Below, piece after piece: positions 7,996 to 31,814 of a stretch of DNA of 64,000 nt (positions within the stretch are counted from its first letter, which is position 1; each line of letters starts with the position of its first letter). A program made the position numbers and the translations under genes. This stretch comes from an uncultured Candidatus Saccharibacteria bacterium (GTDB lineage: Bacteria > Patescibacteriota > Minisyncoccia > Phycocordibacterales > UBA918). Location of the stretch: the NCBI GenBank assembly GCA_964350645.1, contig CAYGJY010000002.1, forward strand, positions 246,431 to 310,430, read 5' to 3'. The notes under the pieces are model-generated. The model made no database searches and was not told the DNA's origin. It was given only the letters and a program-made list of their open reading frames with translations.

Positions 7996-8898
7996 ATGTG
8001 GCTTTTATATACATTCGGGTATGCCTTTGCTCAAGCGCTGGTTCTCTATGTCGATGAATACTTAAGTATCAGTAATGTTGTTACTGAATCTTCTAGTTCT
8101 CATAAACGCATTGGCGCGGTTTTGATCACTTCAGCATTAGTGGGATTTTTAGGTGCACTTGGTGTGTTTCTTTATCTTGGTGATGTAACAGCAACAACAT
8201 ATGTGATGACACTCAGTCTTTTGTCAGCAATACCAATGGTTACTGTATATGCTTCTTACTTTTACCTCTTACTCAACAACCCTTCGTATTTGATTGCACC
8301 GTTTTTCCAGTTCAGCGTAGTCTGGATGTTGCTGTATGAATTAGCACTAGGTGCAACGATTACTTTAGCTGGGTTACTTGGTATTTTCCTTTTGATTTAT
8401 GGAGTGTATATGCTCGATGTTAAATCTTTACGTTGGAAAATTCCAACTCGATTGCTCATGTACATGATACCTGCAAGTCTATTGTGGGCACTCGTAGTAA
8501 TAATGACACAAGCTGCCACACAAGAGGCTTCCGCGCAGGTTGTTGTCTTTTATCAAATGCTGGGCACTGGTTTTGTTGGTCTTGCGCTTCTCTTGTTCGT
8601 AAAACCGTATCGTGAGGGGCTGGTGTTCCGAATGAAAAACCAAGGCAAGAGCTTTATTGCTGCAAGCGTGGTGAACGAACTTTTTTGGCAAATCAGTCTT
8701 TTATTTGCAGTATTGGCAATTGCTTCGGCACCACTCGTTGCTTACTTTGGTGCTGCTGGTGGTGTACACAACCTTATAGTACTTGGACTATTCTTCCTCT
8801 TTCCTCTGCACGAACGTAATAAAATCACTTGGGTGCAAGTATTGGCGATAGCATTGATTATCTTTGGTATTTTTAGTATCGAATTTTGGCGAGTATAG
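7996..8898 (+). CDS. Polytopic membrane protein, function unknown (300 aa).
   Basis: Highly hydrophobic intact ORF, ~9-10 predicted TM segments. Confidence 0.5.
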   Translation: MWLLYTFGYAFAQALVLYVDEYLSISNVVTESSSSHKRIGAVLITSALVGFLGALGVFLYLGDVTATTYVMTLSLLSAIPMVTVYASYFYLLLNNPSYLIAPFFQFSVVWMLLYELALGATITLAGLLGIFLLIYGVYMLDVKSLRWKIPTRLLMYMIPASLLWALVVIMTQAATQEASAQVVVFYQMLGTGFVGLALLLFVKPYREGLVFRMKNQGKSFIAASVVNELFWQISLLFAVLAIASAPLVAYFGAAGGVHNLIVLGLFFLFPLHERNKITWVQVLAIALIIFGIFSIEFWRV

Positions 8899-8941
8899 GT
8901 AAAAGTAAAGAAGCTTACTCTCTCGAGCAAACTTCCATATT

Positions 8942-8970
8942 CTTCTATATATTTCCATGTTTGGTGGAAG
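8942..8970 (+). repeat. Imperfect direct repeat of the ssrA (tmRNA) 3' end plus flank; att-like.
   Basis: 'cttctatatatttccatgtttggtggaag' matches 10007-10035 'cttctagatatttccatgtctggtggaga' at 26/29 positions; the latter is the tmRNA 3' terminus (revcomp UCUCCACCA). Confidence 0.6.
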
Positions 8971-8987
8971 ACTTTGTACCAAGTAAG

Positions 8988-9048
8988 AACCTCTTTGATT
9001 GAAATGGAGTGTCCTAATTTCCTTAAGGTTGTTGAGTTGTGGTAAATT
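8988..9048 (+). repeat. ~60-nt conserved element, copy B (upstream of SRPBCC gene).
   Basis: See copy A; contains plausible sigma70-like -35/-10 (tttcct-N19-taaatt). Confidence 0.8.
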
Positions 9049-9055
9049 TAAATAT

Positions 9056-9496
9056 ATGCAAAAAATGCACTTTTCAATCACAATAGACGCACCAAAGGAA
9101 AAAGTGTGGGACACCATGCTTGAAGACGCTACTTATAGAGAGTGGACTAAAATATTTGAGCCGGGATCTCACTATGAAGGAAGCTGGGAAGAAGGTTCAG
9201 AAATAAAATTTTTCTCAGCAGACGAAAAAATGGTTATGTACAGCCGTATTAAAGAGAATCGTCTTCATGAATATGTTTCTATCGAACATATCGGAATAAT
9301 AAAAGATGGTGTTCTCGATACTACCAGTGACGAAGTTAAAAAATGGGCTCCGTCATACGAAAACTACACTTTTACCACCACCGATAATGGTACTGAACTA
9401 TCAGTTGATATAGACATAAATGATGAGTACAAAACTTCGTTTGAAGAAATGTGGCCCAAAGCGCTTGAGGTTTTGAAAGCCTTAGTAGAAAAATAG
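9056..9496 (+). CDS. SRPBCC-fold protein (AHSA1/activator-of-Hsp90-ATPase-like).
   Basis: 'HFSITIDAPKEKVWDTMLEDATYREWT' START/Bet-v1-like N-terminus; start trimmed to ATG 9056. Confidence 0.6.
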   Translation: MQKMHFSITIDAPKEKVWDTMLEDATYREWTKIFEPGSHYEGSWEEGSEIKFFSADEKMVMYSRIKENRLHEYVSIEHIGIIKDGVLDTTSDEVKKWAPSYENYTFTTTDNGTELSVDIDINDEYKTSFEEMWPKALEVLKALVEK

Positions 9497-9520
9497 CACA
9501 GTTTCTCTTCAATTTAATAC

Positions 9521-9973
9521 ATGATAGAAATTAAAAAAATAACTCTAGAGGATAATTTCGACGAAATAGTTGATGCTATTAAGAATTCTTCTTGGGCTGA
9601 GAAGTCAGAAATTGATCCAAGTGACTATTCCTTCGAACATATCGAAGAATCACTGAGACAAGACGATCATCTTTTTTGCATTGCCTACCATGATGGTCAG
9701 TTCGGTGGTATGGCCTCAGCGTTTGCTCTCACGAAGCCTGATGGAGACAAGTGGTTATATGTTAATGAAGTTGATGTACCAATAGAGAAGCAAAGGAGAG
9801 GTGTTGGTACTGAGTTGATGAAGTTTCTGAAAGCAGAGGGAAAAAGACTTGGGTGTATAGAGATGTGGCTTGGTACTGAAAAGGACAATACTGCCGCGAA
9901 TGCACTCTACAATTCTTTAGAACCAACAGAGGTAGAAGAATTTGTTGGTTACACATACAAATTCAAGTTATAG
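9521..9973 (+). CDS. GNAT acetyltransferase, aminoglycoside 6'-N-acetyltransferase (AAC(6')-I)-like.
   Basis: GNAT motif A 'QRRGVGTELM' and C-terminal 'GCIEMWLGTEKDNTAANALYNSL' resembling AAC(6')-I family 'GCREMASDTSPENT...'. Stem-loop terminator 9981-10004. Confidence 0.55.
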   Translation: MIEIKKITLEDNFDEIVDAIKNSSWAEKSEIDPSDYSFEHIEESLRQDDHLFCIAYHDGQFGGMASAFALTKPDGDKWLYVNEVDVPIEKQRRGVGTELMKFLKAEGKRLGCIEMWLGTEKDNTAANALYNSLEPTEVEEFVGYTYKFKL

Positions 9974-10027
9974 ACAAGAAAACCGCCTCAAAGGCGGTTT
10001 TCTATTCTTCTAGATATTTCCATGTCT

Positions 10028-10419
10028 GGTGGAGATGGGGGTATTGAAACCCCGTCCGAATTAATCTGCCGTTGTGCGTCTACAGTGTGTAGTCGTTTCT
10101 TTGATTTAAAGTAGTGGCCTAAAGAAAAGACAAAACAATCACTACTCGAGTTGCTGCATCTTGGGCACTTGGCACAACCGACCAAGTTTCCACAGTCTGA
10201 TGTTTATTCCACCCGTACTACCTTACCAGACATGGGGTAGACGAGCGTCGTACCGGCGAGCGAGTGGTTACGCTACAGCGGGTGCGAATCCGAACGCGTT
10301 AGCGTACGGACTTGGTACAGATTTGTTTGCATCTATACGTAGCCGCCTTTTAACGAATGGCGGCCAATTTCGACACTGCACACAATGACAACAACTAACC
10401 GTCGATGCCTAGCATCCCC
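10028..10419 (-). ncRNA. ssrA: tmRNA (ssrA), ~392 nt.
   Basis: Minus-strand 5' GGGGAUGCUAGGCAUCGAC and 3' ...GGACGGGGUUUCAAUACCCCCAUCUCCACCA (tRNA-like end, acceptor pairs with 5' end); internal tag ORF GCA AAC AAA ... GCU GUA GCG UAA = ANKSVPSPYANAFGFAPAVA*; smpB adjacent. Confidence 0.75.
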
Positions 10420-22048: not shown

Positions 22049-22121
22049 CCGCCTGTAGCTCAGTTGGTAGAGCGCGAAGCTTATACCTTCGTGGTCCCAG
22101 GTTCAAGTCCTGGCGGGCGGA
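22049..22121 (+). tRNA. tRNA with anticodon UAU (Ile, AUA-decoding type).
   Basis: Cloverleaf: acceptor CCGCCTG/CGGGCGG (T6:G wobble), D-arm TAGCTCAGTTGGTAGAGC, anticodon stem CGAAG/CTTCG with loop CTTATAC, T-arm CCAGGTTCAAGTCCTGG; Ile-like backbone. Confidence 0.7.
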
Positions 22122-22135
22122 CTAGTTTCAGTAAT

Positions 22136-29133: not shown

Positions 29134-29466
29134 TTATTCAGAAGCTTGCTCGGCAGCTGCTTTTCTTGCTGCCTTCTCATGTTGGGAGGCCACTTCCTCT
29201 GCATCTTTGTGAAGGCAGTGTTGATGCAGACCCGCCATAGTCATTGGAAGCAGGTCCTCGCCAGGTCCCGACAAATCTACCTTCAACTCATCAGTCAGTG
29301 CGAGAATAAGTTCCTGCGCATCGACAGGGGTGAAACCCATGCCTTCCAAAGTAGTGTCAGGACAAGAAGAAATCAGAGCTGGTTGGAAGCGCTTGAGGCC
29401 CTCAAATGCTGCACACGCTTTTGAAAACTGCATTTGAAATTGGGCGATACCCTTAGCAACGCTCAT
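29134..29466 (-). CDS. Hypothetical protein (110 aa).
   Basis: ORF trimmed to 'MSVAKG' with GGAGG SD 8 nt upstream (revcomp of 29467-29483). Confidence 0.45.
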   Translation of the reverse strand: MSVAKGIAQFQMQFSKACAAFEGLKRFQPALISSCPDTTLEGMGFTPVDAQELILALTDELKVDLSGPGEDLLPMTMAGLHQHCLHKDAEEVASQHEKAARKAAAEQASE

Positions 29467-29587
29467 TTTATTATCCTCCGTTTGGGTTGAAGCATATAAT
29501 TCCATATATACATGAGTTTAGCAATGCATTTGAACTAGAAGAGTCACCCGGTATATGCTATTCTACCAGCCACAATCAAATACATAT

Positions 29588-29674
29588 GGAGGGTTGGCTG
29601 AGTGGTCGAAAGCGCTTCACTGCTAACGAAGTAAGGGGTTAAACCCTTCAAGGGTTCGAATCCCTTACCCTCCG
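29588..29674 (+). tRNA. tRNA-Ser (anticodon GCU).
   Basis: Acceptor GGAGGGT/ACCCTCC, long variable arm GTAAGGGGTTAAACCCTTCAAG, T-arm GGGTTCGAATCCC, anticodon loop CTGCTAA; discriminator G. Confidence 0.8.
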
Positions 29675-29707
29675 CATCCTCGAGCTAGCTCGAGACATTA
29701 AATTAAT

Positions 29708-29971
29708 ATGAAAACATATATTATTTCATATGACCTAAGAAAGGTGAGAGATTACGAAGGCCTTTATGCTGCCATAAAATCTTATGGCACGTGGGCTCAC
29801 GTGCTGGAGTCTCTTTGGGCTGTTCATACTTCTAGTTCAGCAAAAGAAATTCGTGAAAATCTACTTTCTTACATGGATTCTGATGACGGTATCTTTATAG
29901 TAAAGTCTGGAGGCGAGGCTGCTTGGAGGAAGGTAATATCAAGGAATGCTTGGTTGAAGAAATATCTATAG
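29708..29971 (+). CDS. Small soluble protein (87 aa) with Cas2/VapD-like predicted beta-alpha-beta topology.
   Basis: 'KTYIISYDL' strand, then '...AAIKSYGTWAHVLESLWAV...' and C-terminal 'DSDDGIFIVK', reminiscent of the Cas2/VapD ferredoxin-like fold; similarity is pattern-level only. Confidence 0.4.
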   Translation: MKTYIISYDLRKVRDYEGLYAAIKSYGTWAHVLESLWAVHTSSSAKEIRENLLSYMDSDDGIFIVKSGGEAAWRKVISRNAWLKKYL

Positions 29972-29975
29972 AATC

Positions 29976-30377
29976 ATGGACACGAATTCTACACAACATG
30001 AATCAGAACATGATAGCAAGGTCCAAGTTAAACGTGGCAAGGTGGATTCGTTGGACGTGTACGAAGTTACAGGGGATGAGTTAGAGCTTATTGAAAGAGG
30101 TTCACCAAATTCATTATATTTAAACTTTTCAATTTTTCTTATCTCAATAGGAACAGCTTTCTTAATCACTTTGCTCACTGTAGACATTGTGCCTATCTCA
30201 AAGATGTTTATAATTTTCACTCTAGTAACCATTGTTGCATTTGTAGTGGGGGTATTCCTATTCATTCTTTGGTATAGAAATCGAAGTTCACTTTCAGGTG
30301 TATTTAGTAAAATTAAGGGACGTATGCAACCAGATTCAATTCCACCAGAATTGAGTAGTGAGACAGAGACCCCATAA
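29976..30377 (+). CDS. Small membrane protein (133 aa) with two adjacent TM helices and acidic/polar termini.
   Basis: Hydrophobic segments 'LYLNFSIFLISIGTAFLITLLTV' and 'IIFTLVTIVAFVVGVFLFILWY'; ATG 5 nt after upstream stop (operon). Confidence 0.45.
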   Translation: MDTNSTQHESEHDSKVQVKRGKVDSLDVYEVTGDELELIERGSPNSLYLNFSIFLISIGTAFLITLLTVDIVPISKMFIIFTLVTIVAFVVGVFLFILWYRNRSSLSGVFSKIKGRMQPDSIPPELSSETETP

Positions 30378-30695
30378 ATATCATATGCTCGAGACACTAT
30401 CAAATCAGAATCTGAAAATAACTAAATTGGTCAAGCAGGGCTTGGCATCACACGGTTCTAACTTGAGACAGCCCGCAAAGCAAATACTGCCGCCGCAAGG
30501 CGGTTTTGTGTTTGTGGAGGCTAAAGTAACAGTCCGGGGGACTGTTGCGTGGGATTCGAAAAGCTTTTGAGTTATTTTCAAGCTAGCGCTGAAAATAGCC
30601 AAAAGGTATACTGTCTATGTAATGGAAGAATCCCTTCCGCATCCTCAAGCTAGCACGAGACACTCTGTTTTTGCTAGTTTTGCTATAATTGATCT

Positions 30696-31814
30696 ATGAA
30701 AAAAACTATTCTTATTGTACTAGCCGGTTGTGTTGCGCTGTTCGTACTTATCGCACTAGCCGGTATGTATAAATTTAATTACCTGGCTTCGCAGCCTGGG
30801 TATGACGTCGATGGAAATAAAATTGAAGCCACCGACACCTTTGAAGTGATTGAGGTTTTAGGTCAGAGTTGCCAGACTACTAGTGACTGCGAAATTCCAG
30901 CCGAGTACGCATTGCAGTCAAATTGTCCCTATGATTCAGTATGTATAGAAAATAGCTGTGCAGTTATTTGCCCGTATCCTTTTTCTGGCAAGAGTACAGC
31001 TGGGTCTGGTTTCCAAAATGCAACATATAGTATCAATGGTGAATCAGTAGTTTTGGTTGATGGTTTTGCTGAAACAGACGCTGCCCCGGGTGCAGCTGCA
31101 AAAATAATCACACGTTATTTTGGTAACGAGGTTCGTACTGATCTCAATGATGATGGTAGAGAAGATGTAGTATTTTTGCTTACGCAAGAGACAGGTGGCA
31201 CTGGGACCTTTTTCTATGCTGTAGCAGCGCTTAATAGAGAGGGCGGTTGGGAGGGCTCCCAAGCGTTTTTCTTAGGAGACAGAATTGCGCCACAAACCAC
31301 GGAAATGAGTCAGAACCCTGATCATAAAAACGTAATTGTGTTCAATTATGCAGATCGAGAAACCAGCCAAGCAATGTCAGAACAGCCAGCAGTCGGTAAA
31401 AGTGTTTGGCTTAAGCTCGATGTAGAGTCGATGACTTTTGGTGAAGTCGCTCAAGATTTTGAAGGCGAAGCTGATCCAGATATCATGGCTCTTGATATGC
31501 AGACCTGGACGTGGGTAAAAACTCAGTACAGTAATGATATTGAATTGGTACCCAATCAGCCAAATACTTTTACTATCACGTTCAATGGTGAGGGATCAGT
31601 TTCGGCAACGACAGACTGTAACGCAATGAGTGGAACGTACGAACTGGATGGAAATCAGATTATATTTGGACCAATAGCGATGACCAAAATGTTTTGCTCA
31701 AATTCGCAGGAGCAGGAATTTGCATCCATGTTAGCTGAAGCGCACTCTTTCTTCTTTACACGAAAAGGAGAACTTATTTTTGAGTTTGATAGGGGCACCG
31801 CTACTTTCCGTTAA
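30696..31814 (+). CDS. Secreted/membrane-anchored protein with Cys-rich region and C-terminal META (HslJ-like) domain.
   Basis: N-terminal signal anchor; C-terminal 'ATTDCNAMSGTYELDGNQIIFGPIAMTKMFC' matches the META domain pattern. Confidence 0.55.
   Translation: MKKTILIVLAGCVALFVLIALAGMYKFNYLASQPGYDVDGNKIEATDTFEVIEVLGQSCQTTSDCEIPAEYALQSNCPYDSVCIENSCAVICPYPFSGKSTAGSGFQNATYSINGESVVLVDGFAETDAAPGAAAKIITRYFGNEVRTDLNDDGREDVVFLLTQETGGTGTFFYAVAALNREGGWEGSQAFFLGDRIAPQTTEMSQNPDHKNVIVFNYADRETSQAMSEQPAVGKSVWLKLDVESMTFGEVAQDFEGEADPDIMALDMQTWTWVKTQYSNDIELVPNQPNTFTITFNGEGSVSATTDCNAMSGTYELDGNQIIFGPIAMTKMFCSNSQEQEFASMLAEAHSFFFTRKGELIFEFDRGTATFR

Follow-up and report, generated by a model that had tools for sequence, protein, structure and literature searches.

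What are two small genes doing between a transfer RNA gene and a second, partial copy of that gene's own end? The question is raised by a stretch of 64,000 nucleotides (nt) from an uncultured Candidatus Saccharibacteria bacterium (contig CAYGJY010000002.1, positions 246,431 to 310,430), here called the window. Near its middle, a tRNA-Ser(GCU) gene is followed by two genes, called here A and B, and by a conserved segment of about 95 nt, called here element E. A first-pass annotation, made from the letters of the window alone, had proposed that this islet is what remains of a decayed integrative element, and that its two genes form a toxin-antitoxin, abortive-infection (Abi) or defence pair.

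The best explanation for positions 29676-30662, in this Parcubacteria-like genome of the Patescibacteria (the Candidate Phyla Radiation, CPR), is a small insertion without an integrase at the 3' end of tRNA-Ser(GCU). For the pair that was inserted, the kind of role first proposed is still the best reading. Here, B would be a membrane effector and A its controller, a protein with a predicted Cas2 fold, the two making a toxin-antitoxin or abortive-infection pair. A probability of about 0.5 is assigned to this reading, which draws, as does all that is said here about function, on comparative genomics and predicted structure.

An insertion at the end of tRNA-Ser(GCU) and its relatives

The features of the islet are these, counted from the first letter of the window.

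29588..29675, plus strand: tRNA-Ser(GCU), the anchor of the islet (ARAGORN; Rfam RF00005, 57.1 bits)
29658..29697, plus strand: left copy of the direct repeat, the final 18 nt of the tRNA and 22 nt of flank
29679..29694, no strand: perfect palindrome CTCGAGCTAGCTCGAG, immediately 3' of the tRNA (fold -8.4 kcal/mol, z = -3.2)
29708..29971, plus strand: gene A, an 87-amino-acid (aa) stand-alone Cas2-fold protein of the phrog_1090 family
29976..30377, plus strand: gene B, 133 aa, starting 4 nt past the stop of A
30386..30477, plus strand: element E, the conserved ~95-nt cassette end (nhmmer E = 1.9e-21)
30387..30396, plus strand: GCTCGAGACA, a direct repeat of 29688-29697, at the start of element E
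30454..30476, plus strand: mimic of the tRNA 3' end within E, GGTTCTAACTTGAGACAGCCCGC, equal in length to the GGTTC-to-CCGC stretch of the tRNA
30480..30515, plus strand: intrinsic terminator, GCAA loop and T-run (-19.6 kcal/mol, z = -4.2)
30519..30627, plus strand: stably folding spacer between terminator and right repeat, homologous to a segment of locus L121
30628..30662, plus strand: right repeat copy, GAATCCCTT followed by CCGC and the 22-nt flank

ARAGORN and Rfam agree on the tRNA and its position, 29588-29675. The two copies of its end and flank (29658-29697 and 30628-30662) align with 2 mismatches and a single 5-nt gap, and over the ungapped core (29668-29697 against 30633-30662) 27 of 30 positions match. 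The local alignment scores 25, where shuffled queries score 12.6 +/- 1.5 and reach 17 at most (n = 200). The repeat of the tRNA end is far beyond chance. The first-pass annotation had described this repeat and its 5-nt indel, both of which stand, as does its view that the repeat marks an insertion at a tRNA 3' end; its count of three mismatches was one too many.

The duplication of the tRNA end is nonetheless more intricate than had been described. The right-hand copy is composite, for only its CCGC and the 22-nt flank clearly repeat the tRNA end. The GAATCCCTT before them is the 3' strand of a stably folded segment, in which GAATCCC of the right copy pairs with GGGATTC. A second, more diverged mimic must also be added, at 30454-30476, where the terminus of E (GGTTCTAGCTCGAGACGGCCCGC) equals in length the tRNA segment GGTTCGAATCCCTTACCCTCCGC and shares part of its sequence. 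A shorter pair of direct repeats, 29688-29697 and 30387-30396, brackets the A-B cargo, and the same layout is found in L088 and L121 (loci gathered for comparison carry L numbers). The palindrome behind the tRNA has counterparts as well, the homologous flanks in L109, L110, L096 and L114 forming longer hairpins.

The interval is AT-rich, as had been stated. Its G+C content is 39.1%, against 45.0% for the whole window, which is the 4th percentile among windows of the same size; the downstream neighbour, at 44.6%, exceeds it only slightly. The gene 3' of the right repeat and its flank encodes a META-domain protein, whose named relatives come from Kaiserbacteria, Yonathbacteria, Parcubacteria and similar groups. 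No open reading frame of the size of an integrase lies between the repeats, and none could fit, because A and B occupy the space; the earlier remark that no integrase remains was correct.

Behind E comes the GCAA hairpin, which is the GNRA-loop terminator that had been predicted. Behind this, in turn, 30519-30645 folds at -43.6 kcal/mol (z = -4.2), with 0 of 200 shuffles as good. An Rfam scan of 29400-30800 at E <= 1 found the tRNA alone, with no match for E or for the folded spacer. The spacer (30519-30627) may be the remnant of a second, gene-less cassette, a second type of cassette end, or a new small RNA. Our reading of the order is tRNA-Ser, flank, A, B, E, terminator and a ~110-nt fold with a partial tRNA copy, flank, META gene; that is, one cassette and then a second, gene-less unit or remnant.

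The segment homologous to the spacer in L121, a Parcubacteria-like metagenome contig, keeps long hairpins despite its different sequence, as judged by eye. It recurs in L121 3' of the second tRNA-Ser and terminator of that locus. At 2393-2480 (oriented), the contig holds a tRNA-Ser that is well formed and whose anticodon, ACT, is unusual, ~1.1 kb downstream of a tRNA-Ser(GCT), with a degenerate 5' fragment of a tRNA-Ser between the two (~2272).

Element E itself came from a search for an empty site among homologues of the META gene, which led to L088 and L089, and thence to E. In both, E lies upstream of the META-gene homologue, there after different genes. The same ~95 nt 3' of B are conserved in L002, the closest A-B locus, whose A and B are 84% and 64% identical to those of the window and lie 31 nt after a tRNA-Gln(CUG). 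Its E is partial, with an end that resembles the end of tRNA-Gln. The conservation after B is not protein-coding, because the reading frames there differ among the loci compared (the window, L002, L089 and L121).

An exact-pattern scan places E in 34 metagenome contigs, and an nhmmer profile built from 29 copies retrieves 44 copies from the sequence set gathered here. At nine loci (the window, L088, L091, L096, L106, L110, L116, L120 and L121) a tRNA for Ser, Gln or Trp stands on the same strand, 0.06-1.8 kb upstream of E. The terminal bases of E follow the tRNA: CCCGC with Ser, CCAGC with Gln, CCCCGC with Trp. Identity to the tRNA extends only over its last 4-5 nt and the flank. The terminal CCGCC of E in L088, together with 15 nt more, is an exact repeat of tRNA end and flank, and in L120 the repeat extends over more than 40 nt. 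The corresponding repeat is weak in L110 and is not seen in L121. All four of these loci have a different cargo after tRNA-Ser(GCU).

More widely, the cargo 5' of E includes Abi_alpha, an AAA_15/AAA_21 ATPase, a trypsin-like protease, an alpha/beta hydrolase and proteins with multiple transmembrane (TM) segments. Several cargo proteins carry Rx4-6H motifs (found by eye); these are of unknown function and have no Pfam match. Two copies of E on the same strand, 0.6-1.1 kb apart, occur in L091, L099, L112/L117 and L114, and look like two-cassette arrays. In L106, a tRNA-Trp is followed by E with no cargo between them.

The best explanation for these loci is a lineage-specific family of cassettes, each consisting of the tRNA end with its flank, then cargo, then the 95-nt element E, which ends in a mimic of the tRNA. 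Here the first description needs correction. The islet is an insertion, but not simply a larger island that has decayed: it is one of a number of related small cassettes that share a conserved 95-nt end. Such cassettes would be moved by a recombinase encoded elsewhere.

One A-B pair is found at a tRNA in quite another kind of genome. In L034, from an unrelated high-G+C genome, the pair lies between a tRNA-Val and a second copy of the 3' end of that tRNA, which scores 30 against a null maximum of 17. This islet (8760-9995) also holds a gene for a 411-aa P-loop ATPase of unknown family, and has no integrase.

Two further RNA genes lie elsewhere in the window. One is a tRNA-Ile with the anticodon TAT (22049-22122), which is probably uncommon in bacteria. 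The other is a tmRNA on the minus strand (10027-10419), with the tag ANKSVPSPYANAFGFAPAVA.

A Cas2-fold protein and its membrane partner

The two open reading frames between the repeats are as first annotated, with 87 and 133 aa, the second having two TM helices; they are spaced 4 nt apart. What kind of protein is A? PHROGs assigns it to phrog_1090, a family of unknown function, at E = 1.5e-24. The Cas2 family PF09827 of Pfam matches it at E = 5e-4 and 20.6 bits, under the gathering threshold of 23.8; 20 of 26 members of the A family match PF09827 at E < 0.01, the best at 7.4e-7. PADLOC returns Cas2 models only (the best being Cas2b, at 4.8e-5), and a profile search of the PDB retrieved Cas2 alone. 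A search of BFVD with a model of A gave generic ferredoxin-like and Rep-like matches only (E > 0.01).

The fold is the ferredoxin-like fold of Cas2, with a conserved Asp that closes beta-1. The YDL of A aligns with the YDI motif that ends beta-1 of Cas2 and bears its catalytic Asp. Y8-D9-L10, S35, W37, D57 and D60 are invariant in the family, where mean column identity is 59% and there are invariant polar residues. By its modelled fold and its beta-1 motif, A belongs to the Cas2 superfamily, much as the first-pass annotation had supposed from its predicted topology.

A is not a CRISPR Cas2, because it is accompanied by neither cas1 nor an array and scores under the family threshold. The window holds no CRISPR array, and 86 of ~88 loci of A homologues likewise lack one; weak repeats of three copies occur in two. 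The family is not CRISPR-linked. It is large, a profile search gathering 1,868 clusters (50% identity) at E <= 1e-10, and nearly all of these are 87-95 aa long. One protein of 1,507 aa (P0226) combines an A-like segment (residues 366-441) with CBM_5_12 and Baseplate_J domains, and is probably a gene-calling read-through across a region of phage tail genes. The N-terminal extensions of the remaining long proteins that contain A gave no domain matches.

B begins with a disordered stretch, which is followed by a conserved cytosolic motif (I.RG.VDSL..YEVT..EL..LE.GSP, at approximately residues 20-46), a TM hairpin of two helices and a basic C-terminal tail. Its modelled structure, a generic hairpin of helices, has moderate confidence (predicted local distance difference test, pLDDT, 66.6).

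The two genes belong together. Among 80 genome loci of A homologues, 31 have a homologue of B that begins -22 to +13 nt from the stop of A. Approached from the side of B, the linkage is complete, with a homologue of A directly upstream in six of six independent contexts (the window, L002, L003 from Kordia, L124, L125/L126 and L127). No third gene is conserved with them, as no other family of neighbours is found in more than 2 of 32 A-B loci. The pair is a strictly two-gene module that moves among unrelated contexts, and its genes are closely coupled and apparently share one transcript. The module occurs in Bacteroidota, Gemmatimonadota, Latescibacterota, Myxococcota, Verrucomicrobiota, Nanoarchaeia, Patescibacteria and others; because this distribution is patchy and crosses domains, horizontal transfer is indicated. 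In Kordia, the defence genes SduA_C and UvrD/RNase H lie near it.

This corrects the view that the pair is peculiar to its islet. It is self-contained, and in many phyla it is mostly found where no tRNA is near. The first-pass annotation had held that the same genes, at loci without a tRNA or repeats, would speak against the element. Such loci literally exist. All they show is that the module has several vehicles, of which the islet is one. The module has no name that could be given to it, as had been said: PADLOC 2.0 has no named system or model that matches the pair, offering Cas2 models for A and nothing more, and a limited literature search found no description of it.

A, for its part, often does without B. 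It occurs alone in many genomes, and at the lysogeny or moron positions of temperate phages, including phages of Staphylococcus pseudintermedius, the P2-like R18C and P2-EC53 (in the Z-region), and phiFL2B of Enterococcus. Homologues of B were not found in the phage genome collection. The Prokaryotic Genome Annotation Pipeline (PGAP) annotates the phage genes as Cas2. The homologue of R18C lies at 3483-3761 of L084, and that of P2-EC53, which is unannotated there, at 1718-1921 of L085. In these P2-like phages, the gene sits in the variable Z/fun moron region, between the genes for tail fibre and sheath, and adjoins a gene on the opposite strand for a 230-aa "putative lysogenic conversion protein."

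At six loci (L008, L013, L024, L050, L062 and L064), A is tightly coupled to a different partner, a nuclease-like PIN_8 (PF18476) protein of ~327 aa (~304-340), which starts -4 to +12 nt from A and is unmatched in PADLOC. At single loci, A lies beside RexA, an HNH-SAVED (Cap5-like) protein, a TIR-like protein or HsdS.

How the pair may work

The preferred reading assigns the poison to B and the control to A, because B is never found without A, while A is often found without B, including in prophages. The coupling of A to B, the PIN_8 protein as an alternative partner, the Abi-type cargo of sister cassettes, and the small mobile units are the reasons that a toxin-antitoxin or abortive-infection system fits. 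Here, B would be a small protein of the inner membrane that damages or depolarises it. A would be a dimeric, nuclease-like protein of the Cas2 fold, translated just before B from a shared transcript, and would restrain it. It might do so by binding the conserved cytosolic motif at the N-terminus of B. Alternatively, it might cut the B part of the messenger RNA, as GhoS does for GhoT, a route that seems unlikely. Were A lost or inactivated, by phage shut-off or by loss of the cassette, B would be released and the cell would be arrested or die. The cassette would thereby be stabilised, and phage infection aborted.

Several points weigh against this account and the cassette history that goes with it. 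No integrase was found in the window or at the loci of E, using a tyrosine-recombinase regular expression and phmmer with the integrases of P2-like and staphylococcal phages as queries, a search of limited sensitivity (best E 0.096). Homologues of the downstream META gene, which are at best 65-72% identical, led to no empty tRNA-Ser site, because the closest relatives have different neighbours and synteny is lost at 65-67% identity; the first-pass annotation had named such a site in relatives as what would confirm insertion. Different cargo follows tRNA-Ser(GCU) in L088, L110 and L121. E has no conserved hairpin of RNA or DNA. RNAalifold gives 29 copies a consensus of -4.3 kcal/mol and 0 compensatory pairs, and because it shows neither structure nor covariation, E is, on present evidence, neither a structured RNA nor an attC-like hairpin. 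B matches no family in Pfam, NCBIfam, PADLOC or PHROGs and has no similarity to GhoT. At some A-B loci, such as L125, the neighbours are housekeeping genes, and the context is neither mobile nor defence-related. The conservation of A, finally, is unusually high for an antitoxin, and would also fit an enzyme-sensor or a toxin.

This last point opens the way to other divisions of labour. A, as a nuclease or nucleic-acid-binding protein derived from Cas2, might detect a phage cue and activate an interchangeable effector, B in some genomes and the PIN_8 protein in others. Strong conservation and candidate active-site residues would suit such a sensor, as would its alternative effectors, which recall the sensors of the cyclic-oligonucleotide-based antiphage signalling system (CBASS), retrons and Thoeris-like systems; the defence neighbours in Kordia, the single loci with RexA, Cap5-like and TIR-like proteins, and the Abi-type cargo of sister cassettes also point this way. 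However, a single domain of 87 aa leaves scant room both to sense and to activate an effector, and the solo copies of A in genomes and prophages would be sensors without effectors. B always with A, and A often without B, is the classic asymmetry of poison and antidote. These considerations make a sensor somewhat unlikely. The roles may also be reversed, with A as a VapD/Cas2-like nuclease toxin and B as a membrane-anchored immunity protein or antitoxin. VapD-like proteins are indeed toxins that need a conserved Asp (PMC11980593), the solo Cas2-like protein BPSL1038 is active as a DNase (PMC10491678), and A retains the equivalent Asp as D9. Yet A very often has no conserved partner, prophages included, which would be lethal were it a constitutive toxin. 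The soluble gene comes first and its partner second, B depends on A, and the known VapD antitoxins (VapX, VapY and VapW) are soluble, with no membrane partner described (PMC11980593). A toxic A is judged very unlikely.

A doubt of a different sort concerns the insertion itself. The repeat might have arisen by duplication on the spot, or it might belong to a structured RNA that resides there, and A-B might be a long-time resident, possibly with a housekeeping role at the membrane. The pairing of GAATCCC in the right copy with GGGATTC is consistent with this, as are the homologous segment in L121 that lacks a flank repeat, the cargo-free E behind the tRNA of L106, the place of A-B amid housekeeping genes in L125, and the failure to find an integrase or an empty site. 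An RNA fold does not, however, explain why 22 nt of flank past the tRNA should be identical. Nor does residence sit well with the varied cargo after tRNA-Ser(GCU) in L088, L110, L120 and L121 (with a clear repeat of end and flank in L088 and L120), with the closest A-B pair being at another tRNA, with the low G+C of the islet, or with the patchy, cross-domain distribution of the pair. That no insertion occurred and that the pair has no conflict role seems very improbable, and an inserted poison with its controller is still preferred.

A wider proposal may be built on that reading, tentative as it must be. The Patescibacteria may have an integron-like, tRNA-anchored cassette system, with stacked arrays and a recombinase acting in trans, that shuffles defence and toxin genes in minimal genomes. 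The solo Cas2-fold proteins of phrog_1090 may, in this proposal, be a hub that controls unrelated effectors such as the two-TM protein and the PIN_8 nuclease, as an enzyme antitoxin or as a sensor. The orphan copies of A in temperate phages may then be counter-defence.

Likeness to known systems

What Cas2-like proteins do outside CRISPR has long been a loose end. Here, a family that crosses domains is locked to a membrane protein or to a PIN nuclease, and the pairing of A with B gives a directly testable handle on such proteins. To CRISPR Cas2, A is alike in its fold, in the (I/V)SYD(I/L) of beta-1 with its conserved Asp, and in its weak matches to PF09827. It is unlike in having no cas1 or array, in having partners of its own (the two-TM protein and PIN_8), and in its distinct C-terminal helix and conserved tryptophans. 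The PGAP label "CRISPR-associated endonuclease Cas2" is probably misleading for the phage members of the family.

In GhoS/GhoT, the type V toxin-antitoxin system of E. coli, a Cas2-fold gene lies just upstream of a gene for a small membrane protein, in one operon, and GhoT has ~57 aa. GhoT acts as a membrane toxin, and its antitoxin GhoS is an endoribonuclease whose structure is homologous to that of Cas2 (PMC4010927). By analogy, this is the nearest functional counterpart of A-B, the likeness being a Cas2-like gene directly 5' of a gene for a small membrane protein. There is, however, no detectable sequence relation of A to GhoS or of B to GhoT, and B, with 133 aa and a conserved cytosolic motif, is much larger than GhoT.

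The VapXD, VapYD and VapWD systems and BPSL1038 are alike in being Cas2-superfamily proteins outside CRISPR loci, and about half of the VapD homologues stand alone (PMC11980593). In the VapD systems, however, toxicity lies with the Cas2-like protein, which has soluble partners (the SH3-like VapX and VapY, or the inactive VapW). The partner of A is a two-TM protein or PIN_8, with no VapX, VapY or VapW adjacent, and the distribution of A suggests that it, unlike VapD, is the harmless component. A is 10% identical to BPSL1038 and, as far as its sequence tells, is a member of neither the GhoS nor the VapD family.

The genomes of CPR bacteria are tiny, and little is understood of how accessory genes pass between these bacteria. 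If the cassette family is what it appears to be, such exchange would have a concrete mechanism, open to study, in mini-cassettes that are anchored at tRNAs, share a 95-nt end and carry Abi-type cargo, and the region upstream of E would be a practical source from which to mine defence genes from metagenomes.

Among the elements that target tRNAs, the tycheposons of Prochlorococcus insert successively, displacing older insertions distally and leaving partial tRNAs behind, and bring "plug-in" cassettes into streamlined genomes (bioRxiv 10.1101/2020.12.28.424599). The cassettes described here differ in their size (0.6-1.8 kb), in the lack of any integrase or replication module found, in the conserved 95-nt E that closes every unit, and in an identity to the tRNA of 4-5 nt plus flank. 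They are alike in being inserted at the 3' end of a tRNA and flanked by partial tRNA copies; the window has a full tRNA, the mimic at 30454-30476 and the partial copy at 30628-30662.

Integron cassettes, in which Cas2-like proteins have been noted (PMC3710099), bear comparison as well. E has neither the imperfect palindrome of attC nor a conserved hairpin, and the anchor is a tRNA gene, not an attI beside intI, with no IntI-like gene seen. Both, however, are built from short, promoterless units that hold one or two genes and finish in a conserved site of ~100 nt, and both form tandem arrays in which toxin-like cargo abounds.

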